DNA from: Geosiphon pyriformis uo1
Lineage: Eukaryota; Fungi; Glomeromycota
DNA: 64,000 bases
Direction of reading: 5' to 3'
NCBI GenBank assembly: GCA_016748015.1
Contig: JAAOMT010000633.1
Location: forward strand, 28,196-92,195
The number at the start of each line of letters is the position of its first letter. The first letter of the stretch is position 1. Both the position numbers and the translations under genes were made by a program. Shown here in pieces: positions 1,794 through 64,000 of this stretch. Below the pieces are notes generated by a model. The model had not been told where the DNA came from, searched no databases, and saw only the letters and a program-made list of their open reading frames with translations.

Positions 1794-1808
1794 TTATTCC
1801 CTCCTTTT
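1794..1808 (-). promoter_or_regulatory. A polypurine tract
   Basis: Minus strand reads AAAAGGAGGGAATAA directly before the LTR start TGTTAC. Confidence 0.88.
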
Positions 1809-2466
1809 AATATTGAGCTCCATTGAAATCCAATTCTGTTAATTCCCTCTCTTGAAGTATTTTCTGAATTTTGTTTTTGAGAATTACTTGTGCTATTTGA
1901 GTCTGTAATTCTTCAAATTGAGTGTTGGTGATCTTTCCTAATTGATTATTGGTAACTGTATCTATTGCTTTGTTGAGTAAGATTCTTGGTCAATTTTAAA
2001 ATGCTGTGTGTATTCGGTATATGGCTTGGATCTGTGTGGATAAGTTGTTCTTTCTCACAAAATGTTCTAATTGTTGTAGTATTCTTGTGTCAAATAATTA
2101 CTTTGTTTTATCTGTATATAGATTCTAGATATTCACGTGTTGTCCCAAGTAAAAATAACAATAGTTTCTTGGAAATTGTTGTATCCACCAATTCCAAGTT
2201 TCTTTAGTCAACTCTTGGTATAGTGACTCTTTTGACGACTCTTTTATTGCTAATTTTACTTTTGCTATGATTTTGTCAATAGTATTTTCTGTTTTCTTCT
2301 GTGTTCTATGTGGCGATGTCTTTCTAGTGTCTTGATATTAGATGGTTTGTTGATTAATTGTAATTTCCATCTCTTGGTGTTGAATTAATTAAAAGAGTTG
2401 TTGTGCTAGTGAGTAGATGTTGTTTGTAATTTCCATTTTTTTGATATTTCTTGTCACATCTACCAT
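1807..2466 (-). pseudogene. A ORF3, unknown ~220-aa protein (decayed)
   Basis: Reads MVDVTRNIKKMEITNNIYSLAQQ...NYCYFYLGQH...; 660 bp; homologous to ORF3 of B, C, D, E and F. Confidence 0.75.
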
Positions 2467-4401: not shown

Positions 4402-4466
4402 AAAATATAATCTTACAGAGAACCAGCACCAACAACACCAAACCAAAAGTAGCAGAATCAGAAATA

Positions 4467-14445: not shown

Positions 14446-14517
14446 AACTGCTAATGCCGACTGTTTGTCAAGAATGAGACACACATAAAAATCACCAACC
14501 CACCTGCCACAACAACA

Positions 14518-15981: not shown

Positions 15982-16647
15982 ATAATACTTATTCCAGAAA
16001 ACATCAATATAACTCAACAATTAGTTGAAAGCTTACAACAATTAAAATCCGATCTAGAAATTACAGTTAATAGCTCCAAAATAACATACATCAAAAGAAC
16101 AATAGAAAATCCAAAAACAAGAAAAGAACATAATTTCGAACCATATAATATTGCCAAATATAACACCAAATTTATTAGCAAAGTTATTGAAAAATTAGAG
16201 ATAGCATTGGGCAATACATTAATAATGGAAGAAATAGAAATAAGTGAATTAATACCAGACACATTTAGCAACTTAAAAACTAAATTCCCAATTAATTACT
16301 GTTATTATCAACTAGGAAAGCACTTGAACATACAAACATTATACTCAAAAGACTCAACTAGAGTGTTTGACAAAACAACTATCCAACTATTAGAACCTTT
16401 CATTGGAAAAACCAACACTACATTCCATTCAAAAACAGTTTACAGAATTTTCAAAGCATTTGAAAACTGTCACAAATTATTGTTGGACCCAACCATGAAC
16501 ATAATAACAACCAACAGTATTGGATGACTTACCAACTCGCAATTTCAAAAATTACAACAACAAATTAATAACACAGTATTGGACCACTATAGTAACTTAG
16601 AATTTAATGAAGAAATTAACTTCAATTTCGATGGAGCTCAATCTTGA
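15982..16647 (+). pseudogene. C ORF3, unknown protein, one internal TGA at 16525
   Basis: NYCYYQLGKHL...VYRIFKAF...IG*LTNSQF...FDGAQS*; the start position is approximate. Confidence 0.75.
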
Positions 16648-17526: not shown

Positions 17527-20004
17527 ACGATCCCCAAAGAGGAAAAACCAATCAGCAGTTGCATATTGAAGTTGGAATCGCTGCTCAATCCCAATTCAAA
17601 CCCCAACAACAATGATGACAAGAATAATAGTTCCAGCTCCGTTCAAAATAGCAATGACAAGAACAACGATATCAACTCAGATTCAAACTTTGACTCAAAC
17701 TATGAACAATATATCGCACTTCTTGACCTCACTAAGGAACAAGAACTGAAATGGTTCAGCAATAATAATGAAAGTATTATGCCAGAATGCATGCACAATA
17801 CTAATGCAGGATTTGATCTGAGATATCCAGAAACAGAAGCCATCAAATTGGAACCACATATGCACACCTGCATCAATTTGAAAATAGCACTAAAAATTCC
17901 AGCAACAATAATGGTTTAATTAGCATCTAGGAGTAGTTTAGCAAAAAGAGAGATTAATATAAAAGGAGAAATAATTGACATGGGATATGTGAGAAATATT
18001 ATCACTATACTACAAAATGACTCAAACAAGGCCTATATAATAGAGCCAAACAAAAAGATAGCACAGGCAATATTCTTACTTTTGGTTAAGATAGCTTAGT
18101 TAGTACTGGTGGGAAACAGGGAAGAGTTAAAAATAACAACAAGAAAGATACAGGGATTTGGGTCAATGGGTAGAATAAATGTATCAGTTAATATGGCAGA
18201 GGAAGAAATTGTTGGCCAAAGAAAAATTATCTCAACCAGCCAAGCTATTTCCATTCCACCATATAGCCAGTATATGCTAACAATAGAAAGGAAGGAAAAA
18301 AAACAAGAACAGATTTTTGAAGCTGAAACAAGCCTTTGTGAATCAGAAAAGATTGGACTGATCAATTTCCACATACTAGCCAAAAGCTATAGCCACATAA
18401 AAATTCCCATCTACAACAACACTGGCAATGTCATCAACATACCAGAAAGAACCACCATCGGATATTTAACCACAAAAATAGAAGACCAACCACCAAATCC
18501 CATTCCAGACTTTCCACACCTTTGTGGATATGTCGACATTACATTACAAACAATCTATGGATGAGACAAATGTTATTTACTCCAACCAGAACATTTGGAA
18601 CAAATGAACATGAAAAACTTAGATTCACTTCAATGTATACAGCTCAAGATGTTGCTCAACAATTTTAAAGACATCTTTGCTAGTGAAAATGAGTTTGGCT
18701 GAACTGACATCATCCAGCATCAAATCAAGACTGGAGATGCAATGCCAATTAAACAAAGAGCATACAAAGTGCCACCAGCCAGCCATGAGATCATCTGTCA
18801 AGAGATAAACTGAATGCTTAACAATGGGCTAATTCAACCATCAATGAGCCCATGGTCATTACTAGTAGTACTTGTTTGTAAAAAGAATGGGAAAATCCGA
18901 TTTTGTGTGGACTACAGGAAACTCAATAGTGTAATACGTGGAGACAGCTATCCAACTCCACAAATACAAGAATTATTCAATGCTTTCGGTGGGAACAAAT
19001 GGTTTTCAACATTAGATTTGGACAGTGGTTATTGGCAAGTAGCCATGAATTCAGCTAACAAAGAGAAGACAGCATTCACCACTAGAGAAAGGAATTTCAA
19101 ATTTGAAGTGATGCCATTTGGTTTAACCAACACACCAGCCACTTTCCAATGGCTAATAAAAATTGTCTATACTGGCTTATTGTGGAAATCAATAGTTGTA
19201 TACTTGGACAACACCAATGTATTCTCAAAAACATTTGATAATCATCTTTACCATCTTCAACAAGTGTTCGAAAGACTAAGAAGAGCAGGACTAAAGTTAA
19301 ATACAACAAAGTGCTTCTTTGGCAAGACAGAGCTAAAATTTTTGGGACACATAATCAGTAAAGACGACATCAAAACGGATCCAGAGAAAATAGAGATAGT
19401 AAAGAACTTTCTAGTACCAACCAATATGACTGAATTGAAATCATTCTTGGGATTCACAAGCTATTATCAATGCTTTATAAAGAACTTTTCAGAGATAGCT
19501 CAACCACTCAATAATCTGCAAATCAAGAATACCAAATATGAATAGACAGAAAGTCAACAAGAAGCTTTTGATATTCTCAAAAGAAAGCTCATTCAAGCTT
19601 TAGTACTGATCTACTCAGATTACAACAAACCATTCATCATTACTACTGATGCATCAAGCCAAGCATTAGAAGCAGTATTATCTCAGAGAGGACCAGATGG
19701 CAGAGAACATCCAGTAGCATATGTCAGCAGAGGTTTAACACCAGCCAAAAAAAACTAAGAAACACCAGAACAAGAACACTTAGCAATATACTGGGCAGTC
19801 ATGAAATGGAAAAAATACTTGAGCCAGAAATTTGAAGTATACACAGATCACAAGGGATTAACATCACTCCAAAAACAAGAATTTGGAGATGAAAGACAGT
19901 CAAGATAGAAAATGGCACTCGCACCATACAATTATACTATATATTACAAAAAAAGAAAAGACAATAGAAATGCTGATAGTTTGTCGTAAATGAGACAAAT
20001 CTAA
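17527..20004 (+). pseudogene. pol: B pol 3' part: dUTPase, RT, RNase H
   Basis: NAGFDLRY, QGFGSMG, RFCVDYRKLN, YLDN (from YLDD), TDAS; ends MRQI*. Confidence 0.93.
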
Positions 20005-20063: not shown

Positions 20064-21473
20064 ATGAACATACAAAAATATCAACAATTTCAACATTATA
20101 TAAACATTCAACAGTTCAAGGAGAATTTATCTCAAATGGAACAAAAGAGGATTAAACAACAATCAAAATATTTTATCACTCACCAAAATATACTTTATCG
20201 AAAAAATAAAAGGGATCCAGATCAGCCAACCAAAGTGATTACAGAGCCAGAAAAAGAGACAATATTATTTAACATGCACTCAAATCCAACAGCTGGACAT
20301 TTTCACAAAGAAGCAACCATGAAAAGAACCAAAAAAAGATGCTATTGGCCATTAATGTATCCAGACATCATCCAATATGTTAAAAATTGTGATGCTTGTT
20401 AGCAAAGAAGAGGAACAAGACCCAATGAACTATTAAGACCAATCAAAGTGGGACAACCATTTGACTGGATTGGAATTGATGTAGTCGGACCATTAACAAT
20501 TACCAGCAGAGGAAACAGATATATAGTAATAGCCATGAACTATCTCACTAAATGGCCAGAGGCAAAAGCAATTCAAAGAGCGGATGCAGAATCCATTGCC
20601 AAATTCGTTCATCAAGATTTAATTTGTCAACATGGATGTCCAAAGGAATTATTATCAGACCAAGGAACTCATTTTGTGAACAGAACATTAACAAAATTGA
20701 GCCAAAGATTCGGAATTAAGAGACCACTATCATTATCATACCATCCACAAACCAATAAATTAGTCAAAAGATTCAACAGAACATTGTGTAAAGCAATAGC
20801 TAAACTCAGCCAAGAAAACCAGAACAATTGGGATTTGTTGATACCATTAATACTATTTGCTTATCAGACAATGAAGCAAGATACTACACAAGCAATACCA
20901 TTTGAATTAGTATATGGTAGAACAGCAATACTACCAGTGGAAATAGAAGTCAGCACATACCCAACCGAACCAATAACAGAAGAGAATTTCAAAAATACTT
21001 TGTTGAAAAAAACATATGACTTAATGGAAACATTAGAAAACAAATGACAAAGAGCAGCTGATAACATACAAAAGTCACAAGAAAAACAAAAAGAAAGACA
21101 TAATAACCAACTACCAGATAAACCAGTTGAATTTAGGATTGGAAACAAAGTACTACTATATTATACCAAAGTGGAAAAACAATGGAGTGGAAAATTTGAC
21201 CCCAAATGAGATGGATCATTTCACATAGAAGAAATTCTAGGAAATAGAGCTTACAAATTAAGATTGAATGACAAAATCTTGACCAAAACAGCACATGAAG
21301 ATCGACTGAAACCATATCACTATATAGCATCATCATCCACTAGTAATATTCCACAATTAGGAGTACAAAAAATACTAGTTCAACCAGATAAGATTTCATA
21401 AGACCTGGAACCAATCATTATCATTGACAACAAAATGTCCAATTGATTGACAAAAGAATATATAAGAACATAG
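20064..21473 (+). pseudogene. int: B integrase ORF
   Basis: MNIQKY start; MHSNPTAGHF...CDAC; GIDVVGP; SDQGTHF. Confidence 0.92.
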
Positions 21474-22129
21474 TCAATGCAACAGAAAAGAGCAGAAAAA
21501 TGGAGATTATGGACAATATCCATTCACTAGCCCAACAAATTTTTTAATTAATCTAACACCAGGAGATGAAAATTACCATCAATCAACAAACTATTCGTTA
21601 CAAAAATATGGGAAAAATACCACAAAACAAAGCATAGAAAAGACTTGAAAACGTGGTTGACAAGATCATAACTAAGATAAAATTGGCCATGAAAGAACAA
21701 CAAATAGTCGGATTACACCAAGAACTTACCAGAGAAACTTGGACTTGGTAGATACAACAATTTCCAAAAAACTATTGTTATTTTTACTTGGGACAACACG
21801 TGAATATCCAGAACTTATATATGGATAAAACAAAGTGGTTATTCAACACAACAATACTACAACAACTAGAACATTTTGTGGAAAAAAACAACTTATCCAC
21901 ACAAGCTCGAGCTATATACCAAATACACACAGCATTTCAAGATTGACCAATAATCCTACTCAACAAAGCAATAGATACGGTTATCAATAATCAATTGGAA
22001 AAAATCACCAATGCTCAATTTGAAGAATTACGGACTCAAATAACACAAGTAATTTTTGAAAATAAAATTCAGAAAATACTTTAAGAGAGAGAATTAAATG
22101 AATTGGATTTTAACGGAGCTCAATATTAA
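21470..22129 (+). pseudogene. B ORF3, unknown protein (decayed)
   Basis: MEIMDNIHSLAQQ...NYCYFLLGQH...ARAIYQIH...LGKITNAQF...FNGAQY*; 660 bp. Confidence 0.75.
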
Positions 22130-29665: not shown

Positions 29666-29725
29666 GTTTTCTGATTCTGCCACTTTTGGATAGGGTTGTT
29701 GGTGCTGGTTCTTTATAAGATTATA

Positions 29726-29742
29726 CCTCACAGAGAGCATCA
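29726..29742 (-). promoter_or_regulatory. A primer-binding site
   Basis: Minus strand TGATGCTCTCTGTGAGG, 2 nt after the LTR end. Confidence 0.8.
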
Positions 29743-29744
29743 AA

Positions 29745-30598
29745 TGTTACAGGTGACTATTTCTGGTGTTGGATTAAATAACAAATCTGTAACTTGGTGC
29801 TAAAAGTTATTTGCATTGATGTTATTAATCTGAAAGTTTTGTATCTGAAGGTTTCGGTTTGAGTTCTTTGTATAATAGACAGAAATTCAATAGTGGTTTT
29901 ATTCATAGCTTTCCAGAATTGCAATTCCATCAATTCTTCTCTTGGTGTGATGGCCGGCAATTCTCTGATAAGTATTCCATATCTTCTGTATATGTCCTAC
30001 TCTCTTGCAAAAGTCTTTTACTAGACAATCCTTGATGTCAGTAATTTAGTACTTTATTCATCCAATTAATGCACAACAATAAAATCAAAATAAAATAAAG
30101 AAAAGAAATAAAAGAAAATAAAGAAAGAAAAAAAATAAGCCAAGGCAATTTGCAAGTTAGTATTCCATCAATAGCCATGATCAAGAACTATTGTTCTAAT
30201 GTAGTTAAGTATCAATTACTATTAACATGGAGTGTTAATAGTGGAATTAGGTTTGAGATACCAAATAGTTATTTATTGTGTTTGGAAGATTGTCTAGATG
30301 AAATCTAAACTTGGAGGTCTGTTTCTTTCAGCTTCTCATACTACTACTATATATACATAATTGAGATTTCTCAATTCCTCAATTCTTCACAACAGAAATT
30401 CTGGAATTTCTGAAATCCTGCAATTTCTTTGAGAGAAATCCTGGAATTTTGGAATCCTGTGATTCCTTATAAGAATTCTGTAATTCCTGGAATCCTGCAA
30501 TTCCTGAGAGGAATCCTAGAATTCCACATTTACTACATCTACTTCTGATTGGCTAATAACTATGCTAATATATATTTTCTATATTTCTATAAGTAATA
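29745..30598 (-). repeat. A 5' LTR (854 bp)
   Basis: Direct repeat of 940-1793. Confidence 0.93.
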
Positions 30599-35985: not shown

Positions 35986-38956
35986 ATCTAGACAACTACC
36001 TCTACATATATTTTATACAGCACTACTACTCAATGCCAGCCAAACTATTATTGACCAAAATTAATTTGCATCAATTGTGACAAGAAATTGTTAACAATAG
36101 GTGCATATTATGGCAATAATAAGAAATGACTAATAGTTACCAAATACTATTGCTACTTATATATTTTTGAATGCTTTAGACAACTAAAAAAACAAGGAAA
36201 ATAAGACAACAAACCATGTCTTGCTTATGGGAAAACTCTTTTAGACAAAGAAATATGAAATGACATTTCTGGTCATAAAGAAATATGTAATAAATTGTAT
36301 TAATATATGATTCTGATTAACAATTAAATAAGAAAAAAAATACCCATAAATGCTGTTTGAAAAAGAGCTGTAAAATGACTGGATAGTTGTTCATACTATA
36401 ATGACAAAATATGGAAAATAGCAATCACCAAAATCGAAGATGTAACATCAAAAAAATAAAAATAATAAAAAACAACTCACCAAAACCAAAAGAGATCATT
36501 TGGGTCCCAAATTCAAATATTATTCTTAATATAATGAATTTTGAACAATTCCATAAACACTACCAAGAATTAGCACTTATTAAGGAAGAATAAGAACAAC
36601 ATTTAGAAAAGCTAAATACTTAACTTTGTGACTACTGTTTAATATTATGTAACTTTTAATATTGTAATAAGTGTGATCTCATTTACAATCCACTACTATA
36701 TATAATCTACATAATTCCCAAAGAGGAAAAACCAATCAACAATTGTGTCTCAGAATCAGAATTGAAGTTCAAGCCCAATTCAAACTCTAATAATGATAAC
36801 AAAAACAATAGTTTCAGCTCAGTCCAAAATAACAATACTGATAACAATAATTCAAACTCCAATTCAAACTTAGAATTATACATTGCACTTCCTAGATCTA
36901 GTTTAGCAAAAAAAGAAATCAACATTAGAAAAAGAATAATTGATACAGAATATATAAAAAATATTATTGCAATGCTACAAAATGACTCAGAAAAAGAATA
37001 TATCATTAAATCAAATAAGAAGATAGCACAAGCAATATTCTTATCTCTAGTGAAAATAGCTTAATTAGTGCTAATAGAAAAAAGGAAAGAATTAGGAATA
37101 ACAGCAAAAGAGATAAGTGGATTTAGATCCATAAGGTGAATAGACATACTAATTAATATGACAGAGGAAAAAATTATTAACAAAAAAAAATTATCTTCAC
37201 CTGTCAATTAATTTTCATTCTGTTATATGGCCAATACATATTAATCATAAAAAAGAAAGTAAAAGATCAGACTTAAATTTTTGAAATAGAAACTACAATT
37301 TGTAAATCAGGAAAAATTGGACTTACTAATCTTTACATACTAGCCAAAAGCTCTAAACACATAAAAATTTTTATTTACAATACAACAGGAAAGATTATTG
37401 AAATATTAAGCAAAACTATCATTGAATACTTAAGCACCGAAGTTGAAAACCAACCATCAAGCACTATTCCAAATTTTTCACAACTTTGCTAATATGTGGA
37501 TATCACATCACAAATAATATACAGACAAAAATAATGTTATTTGCTCCAACCAGAACAATTAAAACAAATAAACTTGAAAAACTTAAACCTACTCCAACAG
37601 ATGCAGCTCAAAATATTGCTTAACAATTTTACTGATATCTTTGCCAGTAAAAATAAATTCAGCAGAACCAACATTATACAACATCAAATCAAAACTGGAG
37701 ACATAATACCAATCAAACAATGAGCATACTGAGTGCCACCAGCCAGCCATAAAATCATCTGACAAGAAATTAACAGAATGTTGAACAATGAATTAATTCA
37801 ATTATCAATAAGTTTATGGTCATTACTGGTAGTACTAATCCATAAAAAATTCACTTTTGTGTAAATTATAGAAAACTCAATGATATAACTTGTAAAAACA
37901 GCTATCCCACTCCACAAATTCAAGAATTATTTGATGCTTTTGAAAGAAAAAAATGGTTTTTTACTTTAGACTTGAATAATAGTTACTGGCAGATAGCTAT
38001 GAATCCAGTTAACAAAAAGAAAACTGTGTTTACTACCAGAGAAAAAAATTTCGAATTTGAAATCATGCCATTCAGTTTTACCAATGCTCCAGCCACATTT
38101 TAATGACTGATAGAAATTGTTTATACCAGACTGCTATAGAAAACAATAGTTGTATATTTGAATAACACCAATGTGTTCTCAAGAACATTTAATAATTATT
38201 TGTATCATCTCTAGTAAGTGTTTAAAAGATTGCAAAGAGCAAGATTAAAACTAAATGCAACCAAATGCTTTTTTGGCAAAACAGAATTAAAATTTTTAGG
38301 ACATATTGTAAACAAAAATGGCATTAAGACAGATTTAAACAAGATTGAGATTGTTAAAAACTTTTCAGTATTAACCAATATGACAGAACTACAAACATTC
38401 TTGGAATTTACGGAATATTACTGTTATTTTATCCAAAACTTCTCCAAACTGGCTCAACCACTCTACTAGCTTCAAGCCAAAAATGTAAAATATAAATAGA
38501 ATAAAACACAACAAAAAGCTTTTGACACTTTAAGAAAAAAGCTCATTTAAGCACTAGTATTAATTTATTTAGATCACAACAAACCATTCATTATTACCAC
38601 TAATGTATCTGGTCAAACATTGGGAGCTGTACTATTTCAGAGAGAACCAGATGGACAAAAACATTCAGTAATATACACCAATTGAAGTTTGAGTCCAGCT
38701 GAAAAGAACTATGAAACACTGGCACTAAAACACTTAGCTATCTATTGGGCAGTCATGAAATAAAAGGAATATTTAAGCCAGAAATTCAATATATACTGAT
38801 TACAAAAGATTAACATCAATTTAAAAGTAAAAATTTGGAGATAACTACCACACCAGATAAAAAATAAAACTTTCACTATTCAAATATATAGTACATTATA
38901 AAAAGAGAAAAGAAAACAAAAATGCTAACAGCTTATTATAAATGAGACAAATCTAA
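34332..38956 (+). pseudogene. gag-pol: D gag-pol remnant with internal deletions
   Basis: Degenerate protease (LIFNNGLANSII), partial dUTPase (RSSLAKK), RT (KCFFGKTELKFLGH); ends MRQI*. Confidence 0.85.
35921..35983 (+). repeat. Poly(A) run, 63 nt
   Basis: Uninterrupted A tract inside D. Confidence 0.95.
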
Positions 38957-39488: not shown

Positions 39489-40284
39489 TGTTACTCATAG
39501 AATATAAGAAACATATATTAGAATAAATTAGCCAATAGTAAATATGAAATTCCAGGATTTTTCTCAAAAAGAATTCCAGAAATTTCAGGATTCTCATATA
39601 AGAAATCACAGGATTCCTGGTGTGAGGAATTAAGGAATTGAGGAATCAAAGAATCTTAATTATATATATATAGCAGTAGTATTAGAAAGAGAAAAAAACA
39701 GAATTTTTTTAGTTAGAGACCTTTCAGTTTAGATCTGATCTAAGCAATCTTCTATTCACAAATATCAATAAATAATTATTCACTATTTCAATCTATTCTT
39801 CACTATCAACACTTCATGTTGATAGTAATTGATACTTAACTACACAGAAACAATAGCTCTTAATTATGGCTATTAACAGGATACTAACTTGCAATTGCTT
39901 TTGTTTATTTCTTTATCTTCTTTTATTTTCTTTATTTCCTTTGTATTTTTTGTTGATTGACTAATTGATTAAAAATTAAAGCACTGAATTACAGATGTCA
40001 TAGAAACTAGTAAAAAACCTGTGAAACAAGGGTAGGACATTTATAGATTTGAGAATAGTTTACCAGGAGGATTACTGGTCACCATGCTGAGAAAAAAATT
40101 TGATAGAATTGCAATTCTGGGAGGCTACTGAAACAACTATTAAATCTCTGTTCATTATACAAAAAACTCTACAACAAAACCTTCAGATCAATTAAACCTT
40201 CAGAGATCAACACCAGAATACCAACCAAGCACCAAGTTACGGATTTATTATTGGTTTTGAGACCCCAAATAAACATCTGTAACA
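39489..40284 (+). repeat. E 5' LTR
   Basis: TGTTAC...GTAACA followed by the PBS TGCTGCTCCTTGTAAGG (40287-40303). Confidence 0.93.
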
Positions 40285-40364
40285 TTTGCTGCTCCTTGTA
40301 AGGTATAATTCTACAGAGAACCAGCACCAACAACAATCATCCAAAAGTGACAGAATCAAAAATC

Positions 40365-43300: not shown

Positions 43301-46300
43301 ATTGGGACAGTAATAGTCAAAGCAAGCAGGCACCAATTTGGACTTGGGAAGAGAAGAGAAAAGAAAAAGAAGAAGGACCAAAACCAGTTACTACTCCAAC
43401 ATATATTTTATATACTTACTCTCAACCACCACAATTATATTATTGTCAACCAAAGCTCATATGTGTTGATTGTGGTAAAAAATTGTCATCAATAAGTGCA
43501 TACTATAGTAACAATGAGAAATACCTAACAGCAACTAAATTTTATTACCATCTATGCATCATTGAACACTTTGAAAGACCAAAACAAGTTGGAAAATGGG
43601 ATAATGAGCTGTGCTTGGCTTGTGGTAAAACTTTTCTTGATGAAGAAATATGAAATAACATTTTTGGAAAAGAAAAACATGCGATGAATTGTGTCAGTAC
43701 ACAATTTTCATAAGTGACTGAGTAAGAAAAGGAATGCCCATAGACACTGCCTAGAGATGAGCAGTCAAATGCTTGAACAAATATTCACATAATGATGACA
43801 AAATTTGGTGAATAGCTCTTGTCAAAATTAAAGAAGTGTCACCAAAAGAAATAAAGATAATCAAAAATAACTCTTCTGAGCCCATAGAATTTGACTGAGA
43901 CTCAGAACCAGTTATAAACCTCCTAAATTCAGAACAATTTCATGAACACTATCAGGAATTAGCACCTACTAGAAAAGAACAAGAGCAATGGTTGGAAGAA
44001 ATAAATACAAGACTATGTGACTATTGTTTAATCCCATGTAACTTTCAATATTGTAATGAGTGTGATCTCATTTACAATCCACCAATTCACATGATTTACA
44101 CGATCCCAAAAGAGGAGAAACCAATTAGCAGCTGTGCATTAGAATTGAAATCAGCTTTCAATCCCAATTCAAACTCCAACAATAACAACAATGAAAACAA
44201 TAGTTCTAGCTCTGCTCAATATGACAATAGAAAATATAGCAATTTGAACTCTGATTTAAAACCCAAAACATACATTGCACTCCCTGATCTCACCAAAGAA
44301 CAGGAACTTAAATGGTTTAGTGATAATAATAAAGGTATTATGCCAGAATACACACATGATACTGATACAAGGTTTGATCTGAGATATTTGGAAAAAAATT
44401 CCATCAAATTAGAACTCTATTTGCACACCTGCCTTAATCTCAAAATAACACTGGAAATTCTAGCAACAACAATGGTTCAGTTAGCATCTAGGAGTAGTTT
44501 AGCCAAAAAGAAAATCAACATCAGAAGAAGAATAATTGATGCAGAATACATAAGAAATATTATTGCAATGCTACAAAATAACTCAGAAAAGACATATATC
44601 ATAGATCTAAATAAAAAAATAGCACAAACAATATTCCTGCCTCTGGTTAAAATAGCTCAATTAGTATTAGTGAGAAACAAGAAAGAATTAAAGATCACAG
44701 CTAAAAAAATACAGGGATTTGGATCCACAAGTAGAATAAATGTACCAGTTAATATGGCAGAGAAAGAAATTATTGACAAGAAAGAAATTATTTCCACCCA
44801 TCAACCAATTTCTATTCTATTATATGACCAGTACATGGTAGTCATAGAAAGAAAAGTAAAAGATCAGATACAGATTTTTGAAGTAGAAGCAACACTTTGT
44901 GAATCAGAAAAGATCGGATTAGTCAATTTAGACATACCAGTCAAAAACCACAGCCACATTAAAATCTCTATTTACAACAATACAGGAGACATTATCAAGA
45001 TACCCGAAAAAACCACCATTAGATACTTGACCACAGAAATTGAAGACCAATTCTTAGACACCATTCTAGACTTTTCACAACTGTGTGGATATGTAGATAT
45101 CACATCTCAAACCATATACAGATAAAAAAAATGTTATTTGCTCCAATCAATACAATTAAAACAAATGAACATAGGAAACTTAGATCCATTACAACATCAA
45201 ATTAAGACTAGAAATATAATGCCAATTAAACAGAGAGCATATAGAGTACTATCAGCTAGCCATAAAATTATTTGTTAAGAAATCAATCAGATGCTTGACA
45301 ATGAGCTAATTCAGCCATCAATGAGTCCATGGTTATTATTAGTGGTACTAATCCAAAAGAAGAATGGGAAAATCTGCTTTTGTGTAGATTACCAGAAGTT
45401 AAATGGAGTAACCAAAGGAGATAGCTATCCAATACCAAAGATCCAAGAGCTGTTTAATACTTTTGGAGGAAAGAAATGGTTTTCAACATTAAACTTAGAC
45501 AGTGGTTACTGGCAAGTAGCCATGAAACCAGAAGACAAAGAAAAAACAGCTTTTACAACTCAAGAAAAAAATTTTGAATTTAAAGTAATGTTATTTGGCT
45601 TGATGAATGCTCCAGCAACATTCCGATGGCTCATGTAAATTGTTTATACTAGATTACTGTGGAAATCAGTAGTTGTTTACTTAGATGACACCAATGTGTT
45701 CTTAGAGACATTTGATGATCATTTGCATTATTTCTAACAAATGTTTGAAAGATTGAGAAGAACCGAATTAAAATTAAATGTGACCAAGTGTTTTTTTAGC
45801 AAAACAGAGTTGAAATTTTTAGGACATGTCATAAGCAAAGATGGCATTAAAATGGATCCAGATAAAATTGCAATAGTAAAAAACTTTTTAGTACCAACTA
45901 ACTTAACAGAACTGAGAGCATTTTTGGAATTTACTAGATATTATTGCCATTTCATTAAAGATTTTTCTAAACTGGCCTAGCCACTTCATCACTTACAAAC
46001 TAAAAATATAAAGTATAAATAAACAGAAGCTCAATAAAAAGCATTTGACACACTAAAAAGAAAGCTTATTCAAGCTTTAGTGTTGATGTATCCAGATTAC
46101 AACAAACTATTCATTATCAGCACTGATATATTAGGCCAGATATTGAGAGCAGTACTATCACAGAAAAGACCAGATGGAAGAGAACATCCAGTAGCTTATG
46201 CCAGTAGAAGCATAAGTCCAGTAGAAAAAAACTATAATACTCCAGCACTAGAACACTTAGCTATCTATTGGGCTGTTATCAAGTAAAAAGAATACTTGAG

Positions 46301-46513: not shown

Positions 46514-47928
46514 ATGAATATACAAAAATACCAACAACTCCAATATTATATAAATACTTAATTGTTTAAGAAGAAATTATTTCAAAAAGAATAAAACAAC
46601 ATAAAACAGCAATCAAAATATTTTATCAACCATCAAAATATACTTTACCAAAAGAACAAAAGAAATTCAGATCAATTAACCAAAGTAATTACAGAACCAG
46701 AAAAAAGGACAATATTATTTAACATGTACTCAGATCCAACAGCAGGACATTTTCATAAAAAAGCAACTATAAAAAGAACCAAAAAGAGATATTATTGGCC
46801 ATCAATGTATTCAGACATCATCCAATATGTTCAAAAATGTGATGCTTTGTCAGAGAAGAGGTAGAACAAAACCCAGTAAACCATTAAGACTAATTAAAGT
46901 GAGACAACCATTTGATTGCATTAAAATTGACTTAGTCGGATCATTAACAATTACTAGTAAAGGCAACAGATATATTGCAGTAGCTATGGACTATTTTACC
47001 AAATGGCCAGAAGCAAAAGCCATTCAAAGAGCAAATGCAAAATCCATTGCTGAATTTGTTTATTAAGATTTGATCTGTCAACATAGATGTCCAAAAGAAC
47101 TATTATCAGATCAAGGAACACACTTTGTGAATAGAACATTGACAGAATTAAGTCAAAGATTTGGGATAAAAAGACCATTATTATTACCATACCATTTACA
47201 AACAAATGGGCTAGTTGAAAAGTTTAACAGAACATTGTGTGAAGCCATTGCCAAAATCAGCCAAGAAAACCAGAATGAATGAGATTTGTTTATACCATCA
47301 GTATTATTTGCTTAACAGACAATAAAACAGGACACTACATAAACAACACCATTTGAATTAGTATATGGTAGAACAGCAATATTACCAGTTAAGATAGAAG
47401 TCAATATTTATCTAACAGAACCAATAATGGAAAACAATTTTCAAGAAACGTTGCTAAGAAGAACATATGAATTAATGGAAACACTAGAAAACAAATGGTA
47501 AAAAGCAGTTGATAACATTCAAAAGTTATAAGAAAAACAAAAAAAAAGACATGATAACCAACTACCAGATAAACTAGTTGAATTCAAGATTGAAAACAAA
47601 ATACTTTTATATCATATCAAAGCGGAAAAACAATGGAGTGAAAATTTGACCCCAAATGAGACAGATTATTTCACATAGAAGAAATTCTTGGAAATGGAGC
47701 TTACAAATTAAGATTAAACAACAAAATCTTAATCAAAGCAGCACATAGTAATTGACTGAAACCATATTATCATATAGTGTTACTAACCACTAGTAATATT
47801 TTACAATTAGGAGTACAGAGAATACTAGTCCAACCAAATAAAATTCTACAAGATCTGAAACCAATCATACTCATTAGACCAAACACGTAAAATTGAACAA
47901 TAAAAAGAGGATATAAAAAACATGGTAG
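46514..47928 (+). pseudogene. int: E integrase ORF
   Basis: MNIQKY start, DYFTKWPEA, SDQGTHF, QTNGLVEKFN. Confidence 0.9.
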
Positions 47929-48590
47929 ACACAACAGAAAACTTCAGAAAAATAGAAATCACTGACAACATCCACTCATTGGCACAACAAATCTTCCAAT
48001 TGATTGAACAACCGAATATGAAAATTACTATCAATCAACAAACTATTAGATACTAAGATACCAAAAAGATACCCAAATACAAAAGTCAAAGAAAAACAGA
48101 AAACACTATTAACAAAATGGTTCTAAAAATAAAATTAGCAATAAAAGAACCAACAATTGTCACCACATATCAAGAGTTGACTAAAGAAACTTAGAAATGG
48201 TAGATACACAAATTTCCAAGAAACTTTTGTTATTTTTATTTGGAACAACACTTAAATATTCAGAACTTATACACAGATAAAACAAAATGATTATTTAACA
48301 CAACAATATTGCAACAACTAGAACAATTTGTGGGCAAAAACAATCTAACAACACAAGCAAGAGCTATCTATTGATTACATGCTAGATTCCAAGACAGACC
48401 AGAAATTTTACTCAATTCAAAAATGGACTCTATTACAGTTAATTAAATGAGAAAAATAACCAACACCCAATTTGAAAAAATACAGAACAAAATAACTTAA
48501 GTAATTCTTAAAAAAGAAGTTCAGGAAATACTCAAAGACAGAGAATTAAAGTTAAGAGATTTGGGAGATTTTGATGGAGCTCAATATTAA
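47922..48590 (+). pseudogene. E ORF3, unknown protein (decayed)
   Basis: MVDTTENFRKIEITDNIHSLAQQ...NFCYFYLEQH...FDGAQY*; 669 bp. Confidence 0.75.
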
Positions 48591-49261: not shown

Positions 49262-50245
49262 TGTTACCAGACGAAATTAGAGATATTATTTAGCATGAAA
49301 TTATCTTTATAATTCCCATCATTAATTAACACATATTATCGTTTTAAATTATCACTTATTACATTAGCAAAATATCCAAAATTATCATTTAATTAATAAC
49401 CCAATTTGTATTTAACACAAATGTAACCCAAGTGTGATGATCAATTATACAATACTCTGAACTATGTAACATTCAAAAAGTTTGCCAAAATTTGTAAAAA
49501 TTTGCCAAAATAATTGATAGTTCACCGAAATATCTAATAGTTCACAGAAATAACTTGTAGTTCACTGAAATGTATCTTTAGTTCAGCAAAATTGTAGAAA
49601 ATAGCAAAGTTCGAGTCCATAGAATAGTGTTATAACAAGTTGTATAAAAGAAGAGCTTTTCTCTTCAAAAAAATGTATCTTACTTTAGATTTAATAATTA
49701 GAATCATCTTTTATACACAAAAACAAAATAAATATCAAATAAATTCGAAAAGCCAAATTCTTAATTACTTCCTTTGAAATTAACCAATTTCTACTAACAG
49801 TTAAAATTAATTAGCTACCAATTTCAGTAGACTGTTAAAACACTTTCAGACCTGGATCCGAAACAACTTCCATAAATCATCAGTTTTACTTTTTTTTTTA
49901 CATTTCTTTTATTCTCTTTCTTTTCTTATTAGAAATCATTTGGGTAGTCTATGGACAAAAATTCCTGTAGAAGAGTTGACTTTCACAGCAAAGTAACTAC
50001 ACATTTTAGTAAGCTTCTAAACGAGCAATTTCTGGGAAAGAGTTGATATTTACTACAACATAACTATACAAAGTAACTGGCATGGAATTGGCCATTCCAC
50101 TTATAAGTCCAGCAGTTCAAATTATAGGAGATAATTTGAAGATAAATTCGGTTACTGGAGGTTCAACCACATTCAGAAAACGTGAATTCACAGCAAACGG
50201 GCATTAACAACATTTAAGAAAAGAGACCAAAAACCTCCAGTAACA
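49262..50245 (+). repeat. F 5' LTR
   Basis: TGTTAC...GTAACA; four U3 repeats of AGTTCA(C)CGAAAT type; PBS TGGTGCTCTCCC at 50248. Confidence 0.95.
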
Positions 50246-50290
50246 TTTGGTGCTCTCCCATAGAAACAACACAGTAAAAACAAATTTGAA

Positions 50291-53200: not shown

Positions 53201-55923
53201 GAGGAACACTCTTTAATGAGGCATACAACAGTGCTTTCAACAAACTTTATCATTATCTTCATGATGCCAAGATGATTTTCAACTTAGCAATGGCATTAAT
53301 TAATGGAGCTACCAAAAAAGATGTCCATCAAATGAAAGAAGCAGAATACATTAAATACACCATGGAATTAGCTGGATTTGATTATGAAGATGAAGTAGAA
53401 GTCTACTACCAAATTGCAAGTTACACCTATCCAACCCAAAAAGCTCAAATTTAACAATTAAAGCAAATGAACATTAGACTATATGAAGAATGCATTATGT
53501 CTTGTGATGAACAGTGGTGTTCTGAATGTTACGCTTTTAGCATCCCCTTGTCCAGTGAAAGTGATGAGAATGAAATTGAATTTGGAGAACCTAAAGCAAT
53601 GGAAGAAATTGAAACAACATCCATTTACTTTATCGAAAATTAGCCTGTCTTACAACTCAAATACTTCAACAACAATGGACAAGGAATAAAACCCAAAAAA
53701 GCACACGAAATTGATGCTGGATATGACCTATGATATCCAGACAAGGATACTCTTGTTCTCAAACCCAAATCTCTCACAAAAATTAACCTCAAAATTGCAC
53801 TCAAAATTCCGCCAGGAGCAATGGTTCAAATCGCCTTCCGGTCCTCTCTGGCAAGCAAAAAAATCAATGTCAGAGAAAAAATAATCAATGCTGGATATAC
53901 TGGAGACATTACAGTGATGCTTCAAAATGAAACTAACAAACCATTCAAGATCGAACATGCTGAAAAAATTGTCCAAGCTATTTATCTACCTCTAATCAAC
54001 ATTTCAGGTTTGCAACTAGTCAATCAAAGAGAACAATTAGGAAAAAGCGATAGAAGAACCCAAGGTTTTGGTTCAACTGGACAATTCACAGTTCCAGTTA
54101 ATATAGCTCTTAACACACAGAATGAATCCCACCAGATTCTCAGACTTTCACAACCAATTATCATCTCACCCTTTAGAAAACATCCGGAAATCTATGCCTG
54201 TCCAAAGCCAACAACCACACAACAAATTTTTAAGTCTAATGAACAAGTCTGCTTGGAACATAATATTTTGATCTCAAACATTTATATTCCAGAAGGAACA
54301 AAGAAAGTCTGAGTTACTTTTTACAATTCCAACAATTACCCCATAGTTTTATTAAATAATTTAGAAATTGGAGTTATTCACAGTAATATATTTCAATAAG
54401 AATTACCCCAAACAGTCTCCGATTTCTCTGAAATTATTGGACATACATTACCAAAAATCAACCCAAACTCCAGCTCTGAAAACTACCATGTTGTCATGGA
54501 AAAACTATTTCGAATCAACATGGGACAACTTGAACCACAACAACAAAGCCAGCTCAAAAAGCTAATTGCAGAATTTGCTAATATCTTTGCTGAAAACAAT
54601 AATGACTTAGGAAGAACTGATTTGGTTCAACATCAAATCTACACAGAAGATGTCAAACCAAGGTGACAACAAGCCTATCAAGTTGCTCCAGAAAGCCACC
54701 AATTCATCTGAGAAGAAGTACAACAAATGCTTAACAATGGGCTCATCCAACCCTCTATAAGTGCTTGGGCTTCACCTGTAGTGCTAGTTAAAAAGAAAAA
54801 TAGAAAGATATAATTTTGTGTTAACTATCAACAACTCAACAGTGTTACAATTGGAAATGCCTATCCCTTTCTCCAAATTGATGACATGTTAGATGCCCTT
54901 GGAAAATCCAAATACTTTTCAACACTAGATTTAGAAAGTGGTTACAGGCAAGTTGCTATGGATCCCAAAAATTGTCCTAAAACAGCATTCACTACCCAAG
55001 GCAGAAATTACAAGTTCAATGTAATGCCTTTCAGATTATGCAATGCACCAGCAATGTTTTAGAAATTAATGGATTTTGTGTACCAAGGACTCCTTTGGAA
55101 GTCAGTAATCATTTATCTTGACAATACTGATGTTTATTCTCCATTGTTTGAATTACACTTAAAACATCTGCGAGAAGTTTTTCAATGATTACAAAAAGCA
55201 GGACTAAAATTCAACATCGAAAAATGCTACTTTGGAAAAACAAGCTTGGCCTTCCTTGGTCATATCATTAGTAAAGATGGAATCAAACCAGACTCTGGAA
55301 AAATCAGCACTGTCAAAAATTTCAAAATTCCTCAAAATACTACAGAACTAAGAGGATTCATAGGATTAGCCTTCTACTATCGAAAGTTTATCAAAGGATT
55401 CTTAGAAATCGCAAAACTTCTTAACCAGCTTACCACCAAAAATGTCGAATACAAATGAACTGCTGAATGCCAAAATGCATTTGAAATCCTCAAAGAAAAA
55501 CTAACGACAGCTCCAATTCTCGCCTACCCAGATTTCAGCAACTGATTCCGATTAGCAACAGATGCCTTTTATACTGCCTTTGGTGCTATTCTATTACAAT
55601 TGGATGACAATAGAAATGAGTGAGTAATTGCCTATGCTAGCAGAACATTAAAACCAGCTGAAAGAAATTATTCTGCCACTGAATTGGAAACAGCAGCTGT
55701 AATTTGGGCTCTACATTATTTCAACCTTTATCTCTGGCCAAAGGAATTTGATATTATCACTGATAATATTGGACTCAAATGGCTTCAGAACAAAAATACT
55801 CAGCTGAATGCAAAACAAACCCGATGGACAGGATTTCTAGCAAACTATCAATACATAGTACATCACAAACCAGGAAAACTCTACACCAATGTTGACTGTC
55901 TCTCCAGAATAAGACAAGATTAG
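50291..55923 (+). pseudogene. gag-pol: F gag-PR-Cys-rich-dUTPase-RT-RNase H polyprotein
   Basis: DQFIAGL, CYYCRIPGHWKRYC, LILDSGSTES, DAGYDL/RSSLA/GFGSTG, RT, NVDCLSRIRQD*. One frame after a shift near 50680. Confidence 0.93.
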
Positions 55924-55974: not shown

Positions 55975-57360
55975 ATGAATTTGGAAAACTACAACAATCT
56001 CAAACAATATTTGGAAACATTAACAATTCCAATAGATTGGTCTTCAGATGAAAAACATTGACTACAACAACAAACCAAACAATATTTTCTACACAACAAC
56101 ATTATTTATTATCGAAATTTCAAAAACCCAGACAAACCATTCAGATTAATACAAGAACAGAAAAAAAAAACTATATTATACAACATGCACTCAGATTCTT
56201 CATTAGCACACTTCGGAAAAGACAGCACCATCCAAAGAACACTAGAATACTACTTTTGGCCTCAAATGAGAAAAAACATTCATGAATATGTCGAATCTTG
56301 TGATAGTTGTCAAAGAAAAAGAGGAACATGCCCTACTGAACCATTAAATCCAATCAAAGTTGGACAACCCTTCGACCGAGTTGGTATCAATTTAGTCAGA
56401 CTACTATCTATTACCACTCAAGGAAACCATTATATTGCAGTAGCTGTAGACTATCTTACTAAATGGCCTGAAATCAGAGCCATTCAACGAGCAAATGCAA
56501 AATCAGTAGCAAATTTCATCTACGAAAACATCATTTGTAGACATGGATGTTCAATTGAACTTTTATCTGATCAGGGAACACACTTTGTGAACAACCTGAT
56601 ACAAAAAATTTGCGAACAATTCAATGTCAAAAGACCTCTGTTTTCGTCCTACCATCTACAAACAAACGGACTTATGGAACATTTTAACAGAACATTGTGT
56701 GAGTCATTAGCCAAAGTCTTAACCGATTTTGAGCAAAAATGGGACATCTTTATTCCATCAGTGTTACTAGCATATAGAACACTAAAACAAGATACCACAA
56801 AACACACACCATTTGATTTAACTTATGAAAAAACAGTAATATTACCAATTAGTTTTACAGTAAAAACATACCCAACACAACCAATCAATAAAAACAATTT
56901 CCAGGAAACACTACAATGAAAAGCCTACACTCTGCTTAGCACATTGAAAGATAAATGACGAATAGCAGCAACTCATATTGAACATTCTTAAGCTCAACAA
57001 AAAGAAAGACATGACAACAAATTACCACCTATTACTAATGAATTTAAAGTTGAAAATAAAGTTCTCCTACACAGAACTAAAGCTGAAAAACAATGGAGTG
57101 GAAAATTTGAAAATAAATGGGATGGACCATTTTTTATTCATGAAATTCTAGACAATGGATCATACAAGCTAAGACTTGATGACAAAATCTTAGCAAAAGT
57201 TGCACATGGAGATTGTTTGAAACACTATAATTCCAGAAACAATCCTAAATCATTAATTCCACAAATTGGCACACATTCCCCTTTAATCAATCTCGAAGAT
57301 ATTCCTCAGAATTTAGAACCAATAGTTGTCATTGAACAACCTTCTAACTTGAACACTTAA
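55975..57360 (+). pseudogene. int: F integrase ORF
   Basis: MNLENY start, MHSDSSLAHFG...CDSC, SDQGTHF, WDGPFF; ends LEPIVVIEQPSNLNT*. Confidence 0.93.
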
Positions 57361-57482: not shown

Positions 57483-58202
57483 ATGACTATTCCTTAAAAC
57501 ATTCAACAATTATCCTAAAAACTAATGTTAGCTTTAAAAACAATACCTGAATTATCTATTACTGTTACTGGAAACCACATTAATTATGCCCAAACAGAAG
57601 TAGTCACAAATTTAGCCCCAAATTCACGAAAATATTACCTATATAAAAAGAACACAAGAAGTTATTCTGGAATCCACCTGTCAGAACTCTTAAAGCTTGT
57701 TTTAAGAAGAAATTTAATGTTCACTTCTATTAGTATTCCACCAAATACTACTATTCAACAAAAACTTCAACTGTGTCTTAATGAAGAAAACCATAACTAT
57801 ACTCCAATATATAGATATTTCTACATTGGAAAAACACTTCACGAACAAAAACAAGAGCTTACAGCAGCAAACCTCATAAAAAAAGCTATTCAAAAACAAC
57901 TCCACAACGAATTCAAAACAACAGCTGGATTTACAAACAGTCGCTATAAACTAAGAGCTGCTCTTAGACTTTATGACCTATTCCACACCTGTGAAAACAT
58001 TCTACAAAACCCAATTTTACAACTTTTGAAGATTCAATACATTGAAAAGCTCACAGAACTGAAATTTCAACAATTTTCAGACCAAATTTCTTCAATAATT
58101 TTGGATTATTATCTGAAAATTACAAACAGTACTTGGATTTCGACAGAGCTCAGTTTTGAGGAGAAGGTTATGTTACCAGATGAAATTAGAGATATTATTT
58201 AG
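57483..58202 (+). pseudogene. F ORF3, unknown protein, nearly intact (225 aa open from 57525)
   Basis: YRYFYIGKTL...RAALRLYDLF...IEKLTELKF; two TAA (likely from CAA) near the start; the frame runs through the PPT into the LTR. Confidence 0.8.
58158..58170 (+). promoter_or_regulatory. F polypurine tract
   Basis: GAGGAGAAGGTTA before the LTR. Confidence 0.88.
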
Positions 58203-59154
58203 CATGAAATTATCTTTATAATTCCCATTATTAATTAACACATATTATCATTTCAAATTATCACTTATTACATTAACAAAATATCTAAAATTATCATTTA
58301 ATTAATAACCCAATTTGTATTTAACACAAATATAACCCAAGTATAATGATCAATCATGCAATATCCTGAACTATGTAACATTCAAAAAGTTTGCCAAAAT
58401 TTGTAGAAATTTGCCGAAATAATTGATAGTTCACCAAAATATCTAATAGTTCACAGAAATAACTTGTAGTTCACCAAAATGTATCTTTAGTTCAGCGAAA
58501 TTGTAGAAAATAGCAAAGTTCAAGTCCATAGAATAGTGTTATGACAAGTTGTATAAAAAAAGAGCTTTTCTCTTCAAGAAAATGTATTTTACTTCAGATT
58601 TAATAATTAGAATCATCTTTTATACACAAAAACAAAATAAATATCAAATAAATTCAAAAAGCCAAATTCTTAATTACTTCTTTTGAAATTAACTAATTCC
58701 TACTAACAGTTGAAATTGATTAGCTACCAATTTCAGTAGACTGTTAAAACACTTCCAGGCCTGGATCTGAAATAACTTCCATAAATCATCAGTTTTACTT
58801 TTTCTTTTATATTTCTTTTATTTTCTTTCTTTTCTTATTAGAAATCATTTGGATAGCTTATGAACAAGAATTTTTGTAGAAGAGTTGACTTTCACAGCAA
58901 AGTAACTACACATTTTAGTGAGCTTCCAGACGAGCAATTCCTGGAAAAGAGTTAACATTTACTACAACATAACTATACAAAATAACTGGCACAGAATTGG
59001 CTATTCTACTTATAAGCCCAGCAGTTCAAATTATAAGAGATAATTTAAAGATAAATTCAGTTACTGGAGGTTCAACCACATTCAGAAAACGTGAATTCAC
59101 AGCAAATGGACATCAACAACATTTAAGAAAAGAGACCAAAAACCTCCAGTAACA
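58171..59154 (+). repeat. F 3' LTR
   Basis: Direct repeat of 49262-50245. Confidence 0.95.
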
Positions 59155-59364: not shown

Positions 59365-60270
59365 GCAAAAGCAATTCAAAGAGCAGATACAAAATCTATA
59401 GCCAAATTTATTTACCAAGTCCTAATTTGTTGACATAGATGTCCAAAAAAATTGTTATCAGATCAAAGAACTCATTTTGTAAATAGAACACTAATAGAAT
59501 TAAGCCAAAGATTTAAAATTAAAAGACCATTTCTATTACAATATTATCTACAAACAAATAGTTTAGTAGAAAGATTTAACAAAACATTGTGTGAAACAAT
59601 AGTCAAAATCAGTTAAAAAAACCAAAATGAATGGAATTTGTTTATATTATCAGTACTATTTGCTTATCAAACAATAAAACAAGATATTACACAAGCAACA
59701 CAATTTAAACTTGTTTATAATAGAACAACAACATTACCAGTTGAGATAAAAGTCAATACATATTTAACTGAACCAATAAATAAAGCCAATTTTCAAAAAA
59801 CATTGCTAAGAAGAATGTACAAACTAATAAAACCATTAGAAAACAAAAGACAAAGAGCAGCTGATAACATTTAAAGATTACAAAAAAAACGACATGATAA
59901 ACAATTACCAGATAAACCAATTGAATTCAGAATTAGAGACAAAGTACTCTTATATCATACCAAAGTAGAAAAACAATAGAGTAAAAAATTTGACCCCAAA
60001 TGAAATAAACCATTTTACATAGAAAAATTTTAGGAAATAGAGCTTATAAACTGAGATAAGACAACAAAATCTTAGCCAAAGCAGCACATAGTAATTGATT
60101 GAAACTATATTACAATACAGTATTATCATCAACCAGTAATATTCTACAACTAGAAATACAATGAATACTAGTCCAATCAAATGAGATTTCACGAGATCTG
60201 GAACCAATTATAATCATTTTTTCAAACATGTCAAGTTAATTAACCCAAAAGAGTATATAAAAACACAGTA
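59365..60270 (+). pseudogene. int: D integrase core and C-terminus
   Basis: KAIQRAD, SDQRTHF, LVERFN, RDLEPIIII; the end position is approximate. Confidence 0.85.
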
Positions 60271-60925
60271 TATGTAATAAAAACAACAAAAAAAATAGAA
60301 ATACCAGATCATATTTACACCTTAGTTCAACAATTATTTCAGGTCTTAAATCAACAATTGAACATGGAAATCACTATTAACTACCAAACAATCTGCTATC
60401 AAAACACCAAGCAAAAAAAAAAGTACACCATATCAATAACCACAGAACCAGCCAAAAAACTGATCAGATAAAATAGTAGAAAAAGTAAAAAACATTTTTA
60501 AGAAAATATTCATCATGGTTTCAACAAAAAAACTTTCAAAAAAAAATTGGAAACAGTAGATAGAACAACTTCTAATATTATACTGCTACTATTAGTTGAA
60601 ACAAAAGTTGAATATTCAGAAGTTATATCTTAATAAAACCAAAAGAATATTTAATCAAAAGATAATATAAAATATTGAAGACATTATTGAAAAGAAAACA
60701 AATTTGACACTACACATTAAAACAATCTATCGATTATAAACAATATTTTAAAACTACTTAAAAATATTGCTACACTCTAACATGGAAACAATAACTATTA
60801 ACTAATAGGGAAGAATAAACAATTTACAAATTGAAGATATAAGAACCAAAATTGAACAAACAATACTAGAAAGAAAAATTATAGAAATAATTTAAAATAA
60901 ATATTTTGATGGAGCTTAATATTAA
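60264..60925 (+). pseudogene. D ORF3 remnant
   Basis: EIPDHIYTLVQQLFQ...YCYY*L...FDGA*Y*. Confidence 0.65.
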
Positions 60926-61824: not shown

Positions 61825-62738
61825 ACTTTTAATAGCTAAATAAGCAATAAAACTTTTAACTATAGAAAAACATATTAAAAATCAAAAAAATCAAATAAAT
61901 AAAATAACAACTTTTATCTCAATTCTTCTCTTATTGCTAATTTTTTTTTTCTTATCTTTAAGTATCTGAATATCTTGAAATAAAAAATTATTTGTTGGTT
62001 ATTTTCTACCTTTGTCTTGAAATGTATAATTGCAGCATTTGAAGATTATTGAATAAAACATGACTGAAGAATACATTTGATATCTGATATTGAATTCTAA
62101 GAGCACTGACATAAGACATAAAATTATACCAGTATGTAATTATTTGTTAATAGTATGTATTATTTTTCTACTTTTAGATTCTCCAGTTATCTTTTAAAAA
62201 GTATAGTAACTGAGATATTTTATGAAACTGATCTCACACATTAAATCCATACTCATTCAATTTACTCTTTGAAGTTAAAATTTTTTTGATTCTTTTTATC
62301 ACTCTATAATTTTGTTTTATCTTGCTATTTATTAGCTTGTTATTTCAATTTGTAACAATAGTAAATAATATTGAAAAAAATCAAATTATAAGTGAAAGAA
62401 TCAAGCAATTTTTAAAAAAATATTAGTACTTATTCTAATAATTTTTATGTTTTTTTATTATAATTTCAAGAAACAAGATAATATTTTTTATTATTTGTAC
62501 TTTTTAATATTATTTTGTATTAATTTTATATTTTTTAATAAGATAATAATAACCAAAACAATATATTATATAATATTACTAACTTATCTGTTGGCTATTA
62601 TAAAATACACCAAATTGCTTACAATTAATATATTAATAATACCAAAGTAATGCAAAAAAAATGCTGTATAAAATGCAAAACAGAAATATCTTATAAGATT
62701 AAAAATTTTATGCAAATTAGAATTCTAAAGATTGATTA

Positions 62739-63553
62739 NNNNNNNNNNNNNNNNNNNNNNNNNNNNNNNNNNNNNNNNNNNNNNNNNNNNNNNNNNNNNN
62801 NNNNNNNNNNNNNNNNNNNNNNNNNNNNNNNNNNNNNNNNNNNNNNNNNNNNNNNNNNNNNNNNNNNNNNNNNNNNNNNNNNNNNNNNNNNNNNNNNNNN
62901 NNNNNNNNNNNNNNNNNNNNNNNNNNNNNNNNNNNNNNNNNNNNNNNNNNNNNNNNNNNNNNNNNNNNNNNNNNNNNNNNNNNNNNNNNNNNNNNNNNNN
63001 NNNNNNNNNNNNNNNNNNNNNNNNNNNNNNNNNNNNNNNNNNNNNNNNNNNNNNNNNNNNNNNNNNNNNNNNNNNNNNNNNNNNNNNNNNNNNNNNNNNN
63101 NNNNNNNNNNNNNNNNNNNNNNNNNNNNNNNNNNNNNNNNNNNNNNNNNNNNNNNNNNNNNNNNNNNNNNNNNNNNNNNNNNNNNNNNNNNNNNNNNNNN
63201 NNNNNNNNNNNNNNNNNNNNNNNNNNNNNNNNNNNNNNNNNNNNNNNNNNNNNNNNNNNNNNNNNNNNNNNNNNNNNNNNNNNNNNNNNNNNNNNNNNNN
63301 NNNNNNNNNNNNNNNNNNNNNNNNNNNNNNNNNNNNNNNNNNNNNNNNNNNNNNNNNNNNNNNNNNNNNNNNNNNNNNNNNNNNNNNNNNNNNNNNNNNN
63401 NNNNNNNNNNNNNNNNNNNNNNNNNNNNNNNNNNNNNNNNNNNNNNNNNNNNNNNNNNNNNNNNNNNNNNNNNNNNNNNNNNNNNNNNNNNNNNNNNNNN
63501 NNNNNNNNNNNNNNNNNNNNNNNNNNNNNNNNNNNNNNNNNNNNNNNNNNNNN
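62739..63553. other. Assembly gap
   Basis: Run of N. Confidence 1.
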
Positions 63554-63749
63554 AATTTGGAAAGTATCTAATATTTGGTAATTATAATTAAAATTCGTAA
63601 TAATTAAAAATTAATGAACCCAGTTCTCTGCAAGGTTTGTGAAAATTTCATTATACCAATTTATTTTTTGCACCAATAATAGAATGACAAATATGGATAT
63701 CAACATTCTAAGCCTTATTTGTCTGTTTTCATTTCATAAAAAAATTAGC

Positions 63750-63782
63750 TATTATTATTATTATTATTATTATTACTATTAT
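63750..63782. repeat. (TAT)n microsatellite
   Basis: About 11 units with one interruption. Confidence 0.85.
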
Positions 63783-64000
63783 GGTAATCAAAGGTAAATC
63801 CTCAAAATTAGATTCTTCAAGTTGAATTATTTTAATGTTTATCTTTAATATGTAAATTAAATGAAAAAAGCAAAAAATATATATATTGTATATATCTTAA
63901 TTGATAAAATTAATTTTGAGAAAAAAATGAAATAGAACTTTTCATTTTTACCCTGAAAATTAGTTTAGTTTGATTTAATTTAGGCTCTGGCGAAGGGGTT

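Follow-up and report, generated by a model that had tools for sequence, protein, structure and literature searches.

Purifying selection on ORF3, a third gene of dUTPase-bearing Ty3/Gypsy retrotransposons in Geosiphon pyriformis

Extra open reading frames (ORFs) are known in long terminal repeat (LTR) elements of rotifers (PMC5408684), plants (PMC13547354) and fungi (PMC2864245). Ty3/Gypsy-like LTR retrotransposons of bdelloid rotifers carry non-Env ORF3s in the env position (PMC5408684), and an 'additional ORF of unknown function' in fungal Gypsy elements is noted in a figure legend (PMC2864245); the accessible portions of PMC3248453 make no mention of an extra ORF. Here, we analyzed a stretch of 64,000 nucleotides of the Geosiphon pyriformis uo1 genome (contig JAAOMT010000633.1, assembly GCA_016748015.1), referred to as the window, which consists of nested, AT-rich Ty3/Gypsy elements (A to F) with the gene order gag, protease, dUTPase, reverse transcriptase (RT) and integrase. 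Downstream of integrase, the elements of this dUTPase-bearing Ty3/Gypsy lineage encode a third gene, ORF3, on which purifying selection acts. No earlier description of the ORF3 family was found in the literature searched, which took in few subscription papers.

Position and decay of ORF3

A homologous ORF3 of 220-239 codons follows the integrase stop in all six window elements with a surviving 3' end. A first-pass annotation of the window had placed an ORF of about 220 codons between integrase and the polypurine tract (PPT) in six elements; the position after integrase was borne out in each, whereas the ORF3 of F overruns the PPT. The coordinates it gave also hold, with D at about 60265-60925, except that A lies on the minus strand and none of the copies is intact. 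Codons 5 and 12 of the F copy (57483..58202, plus strand; 239 codons and a stop) are TAA, which leaves 57519-58202 open, and this copy runs through the PPT to stop 32 nt into the 3' LTR; the ORF3s of A, B, C, D and E stop 11-15 nt short of the LTR. Like that of F, the ORF3 on metagenome contig L001 reads across the PPT into the LTR.

The remaining copies are those of A (1807..2466, minus strand), B (21470..22129, plus), C (15982..16647, plus; start codon ATA), E (47922..48590, plus) and D (plus), the last heavily decayed, with a frame change and, within its second part, 10 internal stops. In the ORF3 frame, we counted 6 internal stops in A, 6 in B, 1 in C, 7 in E and 2 in F, compared with 9-22 in each other frame (D was left out of this count). 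Because stops are few relative to the two other frames and the ratio of nonsynonymous to synonymous change (omega) is 0.20-0.24, the ORF3 frame stands above chance. Per 100 codons, ORF3 carries 0.5-3.2 stops and the integrase of the same elements 0-2.0, a decay of similar order.

A stop of its own precedes ORF3 in all six elements and in L001, and the frame differs from that of integrase in six of these seven, the exception being C, whose ORF3 resumes in the integrase frame beyond a single stop. The GPF motif of integrase lies upstream, within Pol. In F, the pol-frame stop (57358-57360) is 122 nt upstream of the ORF3 ATG, which is in another frame. In A, the first ORF3 ATG overlaps the pol-frame stop (ACATGGTAG, at 2466 on the minus strand), and the same letters occur in E at 47922. 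The string TATATAA is found shortly upstream of the ORF3 start in A, B, D and E. Taken together, the overlap and the upstream string could point to reinitiation or to an internal promoter.

Within the ORF3 of F lie a GAGCTCA motif (58146-58152) and the PPT GAGGAGAAGG (58158-58167), spanning 58146..58167 on the plus strand. The form GAGCT(C/T)A just upstream of the PPT is common to all seven elements, yet the ORF3 frame across it varies, giving GAQ in A-E and ELS or ELN in F and L001; the motif therefore likely serves as a signal at the nucleic-acid level. Pairwise identity between ORF3 copies is 65-74% among A, B and E, 41-43% between D and these three, 32-36% for C and 17-23% between F and the others. 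By this measure the six window copies make up four subfamilies, not six independent lineages. Four motifs listed in the first-pass annotation align across all six, in decayed form.

Selection on ORF3 and its distribution

The annotation had also proposed that ORF3 is selected, and the dN/dS test agreed, with omega of about 0.2 and not near 1. Nei-Gojobori estimates for ORF3 were 0.24 (A-B), 0.22 (A-E) and 0.24 (B-E), close to the integrase values for these pairs (0.35, 0.23 and 0.21). Because transitions dominate, a codon model with fitted kappa was used, with stops masked, only the second part of D included and the LTR overlap trimmed. Omega for ORF3 was then 0.199 across all 7 sequences (2dlnL 169), 0.217 for A/B/D/E and 0.235 for A/B/E; the integrase values were 0.111 and 0.188. 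As controls, the LTRs of A/B/E were treated as coding in each of three frames; omega was then 1.16, 1.07 and 0.70, with no significant value among them. In 8 of 9 pairs, moreover, none of the six frames had a lower pN/pS than the annotated one. Against selection, the pairwise intervals of F versus B, C, D and E and of D versus L001 reach 1, through saturation. Within the F lineage, support comes from a pN/pS of 0.74 (0.62-0.87) between the ORF3s of F and L001 and from two F subfamilies. These two, 64% identical, account for 44 and 27 of 71 listed proteins (220-246 aa), and the differences fixed between them (43) are of a more conservative kind than the 426 rare ones (p 0.004), in a comparison of Geosiphon gene models that may conceal stops behind predicted introns.

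A protein search with the F ORF3 yielded 197 homologs among 449 candidates. Of the 120 homologs listed, 119 are from Geosiphon pyriformis (59-88% identity) and the remaining one is the window's own protein. Some 200 Geosiphon 'hypothetical proteins' are thus reassigned to transposons. A profile search of 1.84 billion representatives returned 48 matches, and the ten looked up comprise seven Geosiphon and three metagenome proteins; a second search added three further metagenome homologs. Genomic context was read for one metagenome homolog, on L001, where the order RT/RNase H, integrase, ORF3, PPT, LTR is as in the window elements and ORF3 is 27-28% identical to that of F. For the L001 ORF3 core, 25 of 30 matches by ESM features fell in clusters without a common Pfam family, and the top two (0.95 and 0.94) were eukaryotic, mostly Mucoromycota; these matches are a lead for a wider ORF3 family. 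ORF3 and integrase trees of seven elements have the supported groups (F,L001) and A/B/D/E in common, and the branches of the ORF3 tree exceed those of the integrase tree about 3-4 times in length. ORF3 is thus co-inherited with integrase.

Protein features and candidate functions

As the annotation had stated, no signal peptide or transmembrane segment is apparent, the maximum 19-residue Kyte-Doolittle mean being 0.44-1.29 in all ten ORF3 proteins analyzed. None of the ten has an Env-type C-terminal transmembrane anchor by the 19-mer scan or a hydrophobic N-terminal core (judged from hydropathy alone), and each contains 1-3 Cys. Thus, ORF3 has neither the signal peptide nor the cysteine-rich ectodomain of Env, and it is not an in-frame Pol module of the chromodomain or GPY/F type, with no chromodomain match in Pfam. 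Because it lacks a hydrophobic segment and is a separate ORF, we regard it as neither Env nor an integrase tail; in line with the earlier claim, profile and structure searches gave no match to Env or to the integrase C-terminal domain. Omega, hydropathy and these failed matches support the selected, soluble, non-Env accessory protein originally suggested, and we consider this assignment very probably correct.

AlphaFold2 modelled full-length ORF3 with a predicted local distance difference test score (pLDDT) of 75. The N-terminus is predicted as a low-confidence short helix and beta-hairpin, followed by a disordered basic linker (39-64), whereas the conserved core of the F protein (residues 85-216; 57735..58130, plus strand) is modelled as all-helical with pLDDT 89.3 and a predicted template modelling score of 0.81. 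Across 8 subfamily representatives, Y/W110, G116, L119, R162, Y/F164 and F167 are kept (P0015 numbering). ORF3 had no significant match in Pfam, Foldseek libraries or VIA, and its model none at E<=0.001 in the PDB and BFVD, fusion-protein folds included. The core thereby contributes a helical domain of high model confidence for which these libraries hold no significant structural counterpart.

As possible roles, the annotation had put forward anti-silencing, LTR transactivation or targeting. DNA binding is favoured by a resemblance of ORF3 to ParB/DUF1016-type helix-turn-helix domains that is weak and non-significant, in VIA rows as in the profile comparisons. On this circumstantial support, we assign a probability of roughly 0.4 to ORF3 being a soluble helical DNA-binding regulator of the element's own LTR. 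The core would form a helix-turn-helix-like domain, and its targets would be the subfamily-specific repeats of the U3 region. In F, candidate binding sites are 20-bp repeats (58388..58501, plus strand); A/B/E have units of about 40 bp, C has one of 23 bp, D a palindromic unit and L001 three copies of TTGCCCTAG. In shuffle tests, palindromes were enriched in B (3 of 300 shuffles) and D (2 of 300) and marginal in A and E, with no enrichment in F, C or L001. Binding at these repeats might raise transcription or protect the element from silencing, the presumed pressure being host CpG methylation and small RNAs. CpG is depleted (0.27), consistent with methylation as reported for transposable elements of the related Rhizophagus, in which methylation and small RNAs repress transposons (PMC8647823). 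Ribosomes might reach the ORF3 of the A/E subfamily by reinitiating at the pol stop that overlaps its start; the other elements would require a subgenomic RNA.

The profile comparison of ORF3 with DUF1016_N did no better than shuffles, 4 of 40 of which reached its HHalign score. A more specific version is unlikely: that ORF3 is a helix-turn-helix protein of prokaryotic ParB/DUF1016 ancestry, the third gene of a Mucoromycota Ty3/Gypsy lineage, which activates the LTR or counters silencing in a subfamily-specific way, evolves together with the U3 repeats and helped LTR elements to reach about 41% of the Geosiphon genome.

RNA binding and integration tethering are close rivals of the LTR regulator. 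As an RNA-binding accessory protein, ORF3 would serve as coat or chaperone of the element RNA, either within the virus-like particle or at an earlier stage, or else suppress RNA silencing; this is a doubtful but serious candidate, as all RNA-binding leads fell under the tools' own noise levels and spanned less than half of the core, and no RNA-binding Pfam family was matched. Rather unlikely, too, is a role as integration cofactor, in which ORF3 would anchor the integration complex to chromatin in place of the chromodomain absent from this lineage, since ORF3 is out of frame with integrase in all elements but C, its branches are longer than those of integrase, and nesting is expected anyway where LTR elements make up 41.2% of the genome (PMC11952901). 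Other accessory roles together are less probable still.

Nothing but the env position speaks for ORF3 as a degenerate Env or as a different membrane or infectivity factor; given the low hydropathy maxima, the 1-3 Cys and the soluble helical model, this reading is highly improbable. The broken state of all six window copies and the overlap of the last ORF3 codons with the GAGCTCA/PPT signal would fit an unselected relic, or a seeming conservation produced by cis-signals near the PPT. We find this hardly credible in view of the omega of about 0.2 against about 1 in LTRs, the pN/pS rank of the annotated frame and a stop density similar in order to that of integrase in these decayed elements; provided that the alignment is correct, the codon tests refute it. 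As a selected accessory gene, ORF3 is a direct candidate for how the expanding Geosiphon elements beat control of the kind seen in Rhizophagus, and matched and mismatched binding can be compared, since gene models without breaks are available and the several subfamilies differ in their U3 repeats.

Element setting and comparison with known systems

Elements were delimited by self-comparison of the window and by their end sequences. Consistent with Metaviridae, they have the Ty3/Gypsy order gag, protease, RT, integrase, and Pfam profiles were met along them in the order Retrotrans_gag/Ty3_capsid, aspartyl protease, dUTPase, RVT_1, Integrase_H2C2 and rve; RNase H received no Pfam call among the window ORFs scanned. 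Element A (minus strand) is split by B, which contains C; D is split by E; and F lies inside the 3' LTR of E. LTRs end in TG...CA, with 4-bp target duplications CTGG (F), TTGG (B) and GCAA (E); the primer-binding site (PBS) reads TGGTGCTC..., and a PPT precedes the 3' LTR. On the plus strand, F comprises a 5' LTR (49262-50245), the PBS TGGTGCTCTCCC (50248-50259), integrase (56065..57360; H2C2 zinc domain, core and GPF-bearing tail with stops) and a 3' LTR (58171..59154), which has TG...CA ends, shares 93.5% identity with the 5' LTR and has the CTGG duplication after it.

A dUTPase lies between protease and RT in every element (12473-12868, 17776-18171, 25290-25685, 36774-37130, 44337-44729 and 53686-54081). 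Element C is the youngest copy, with 96.9% LTR identity; at 8780-14488 it shows long open pol segments and two separate regions matched by gag profiles, with assembly gaps at 8927-9374 and 14275-14445. The window end (62000-64000) is extremely AT-rich (GC 0.09-0.14), with a gap at 62739-63553. In B (4385-4435), A (29695-29755, minus) and E (40282-40335), a near-complement ending in AGCACCA follows the PBS and folds back onto it (z -4.7, -1.2 and -1.5, respectively), possibly as a PBS-occluding hairpin; the fold-back is absent in F.

DUF1016_N (PF17761, the N-terminal domain of YhcG) and HTH_ParB (PF17762) are helical and similar in length to the ORF3 domain. A Y-x-x-I-G ... G ... R-x-Y-x-x-F pattern aligns them with ORF3 over 57 columns, under the Pfam cut-off (19.7 bits against 32.8 for DUF1016_N) and not above shuffles. 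Unlike DUF1016/ParB proteins, ORF3 has no attached nuclease or ParB CTPase domain. At two other loci (L014 and L016), the Pfam HTH_ParB profile matches YhcG/DUF1016 genes, one over its cut-off, and profile comparison ties DUF1016_N to the ParB helix-turn-helix region.

VANC recognises family-specific motifs. Encoded by Mutator-like VANDAL elements, it is an analogous fast-evolving, lineage-specific anti-silencing accessory protein in a methylated genome, but belongs to plant DNA transposons and has a MAIN-derived fold with no match to ORF3 (PMC13547354). The accessory product Tas of foamy viruses, which binds and activates its own LTR, offers a functional analogy (PMC4929722, PMC8670036); no sequence or fold link to ORF3 was found, and LTR activity of ORF3 is a proposal. 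Fungal Ty3/Gypsy elements such as PosPlaTy3-5 likewise have dUTPase between protease and RT, but represent other fungal lineages, compared here by description (PMC2864245). Bdelloid rotifer elements share the third ORF in the env position, and several of their lineages have a dUTPase domain (PMC5408684). Their ORF3s are GDSL esterases, DEDDy exonucleases or Env-like, none of which the Geosiphon ORF3 matches in Pfam, and show no significant departure from neutrality within the genome (PMC5408684), whereas the Geosiphon ORF3 is under purifying selection between subfamilies.
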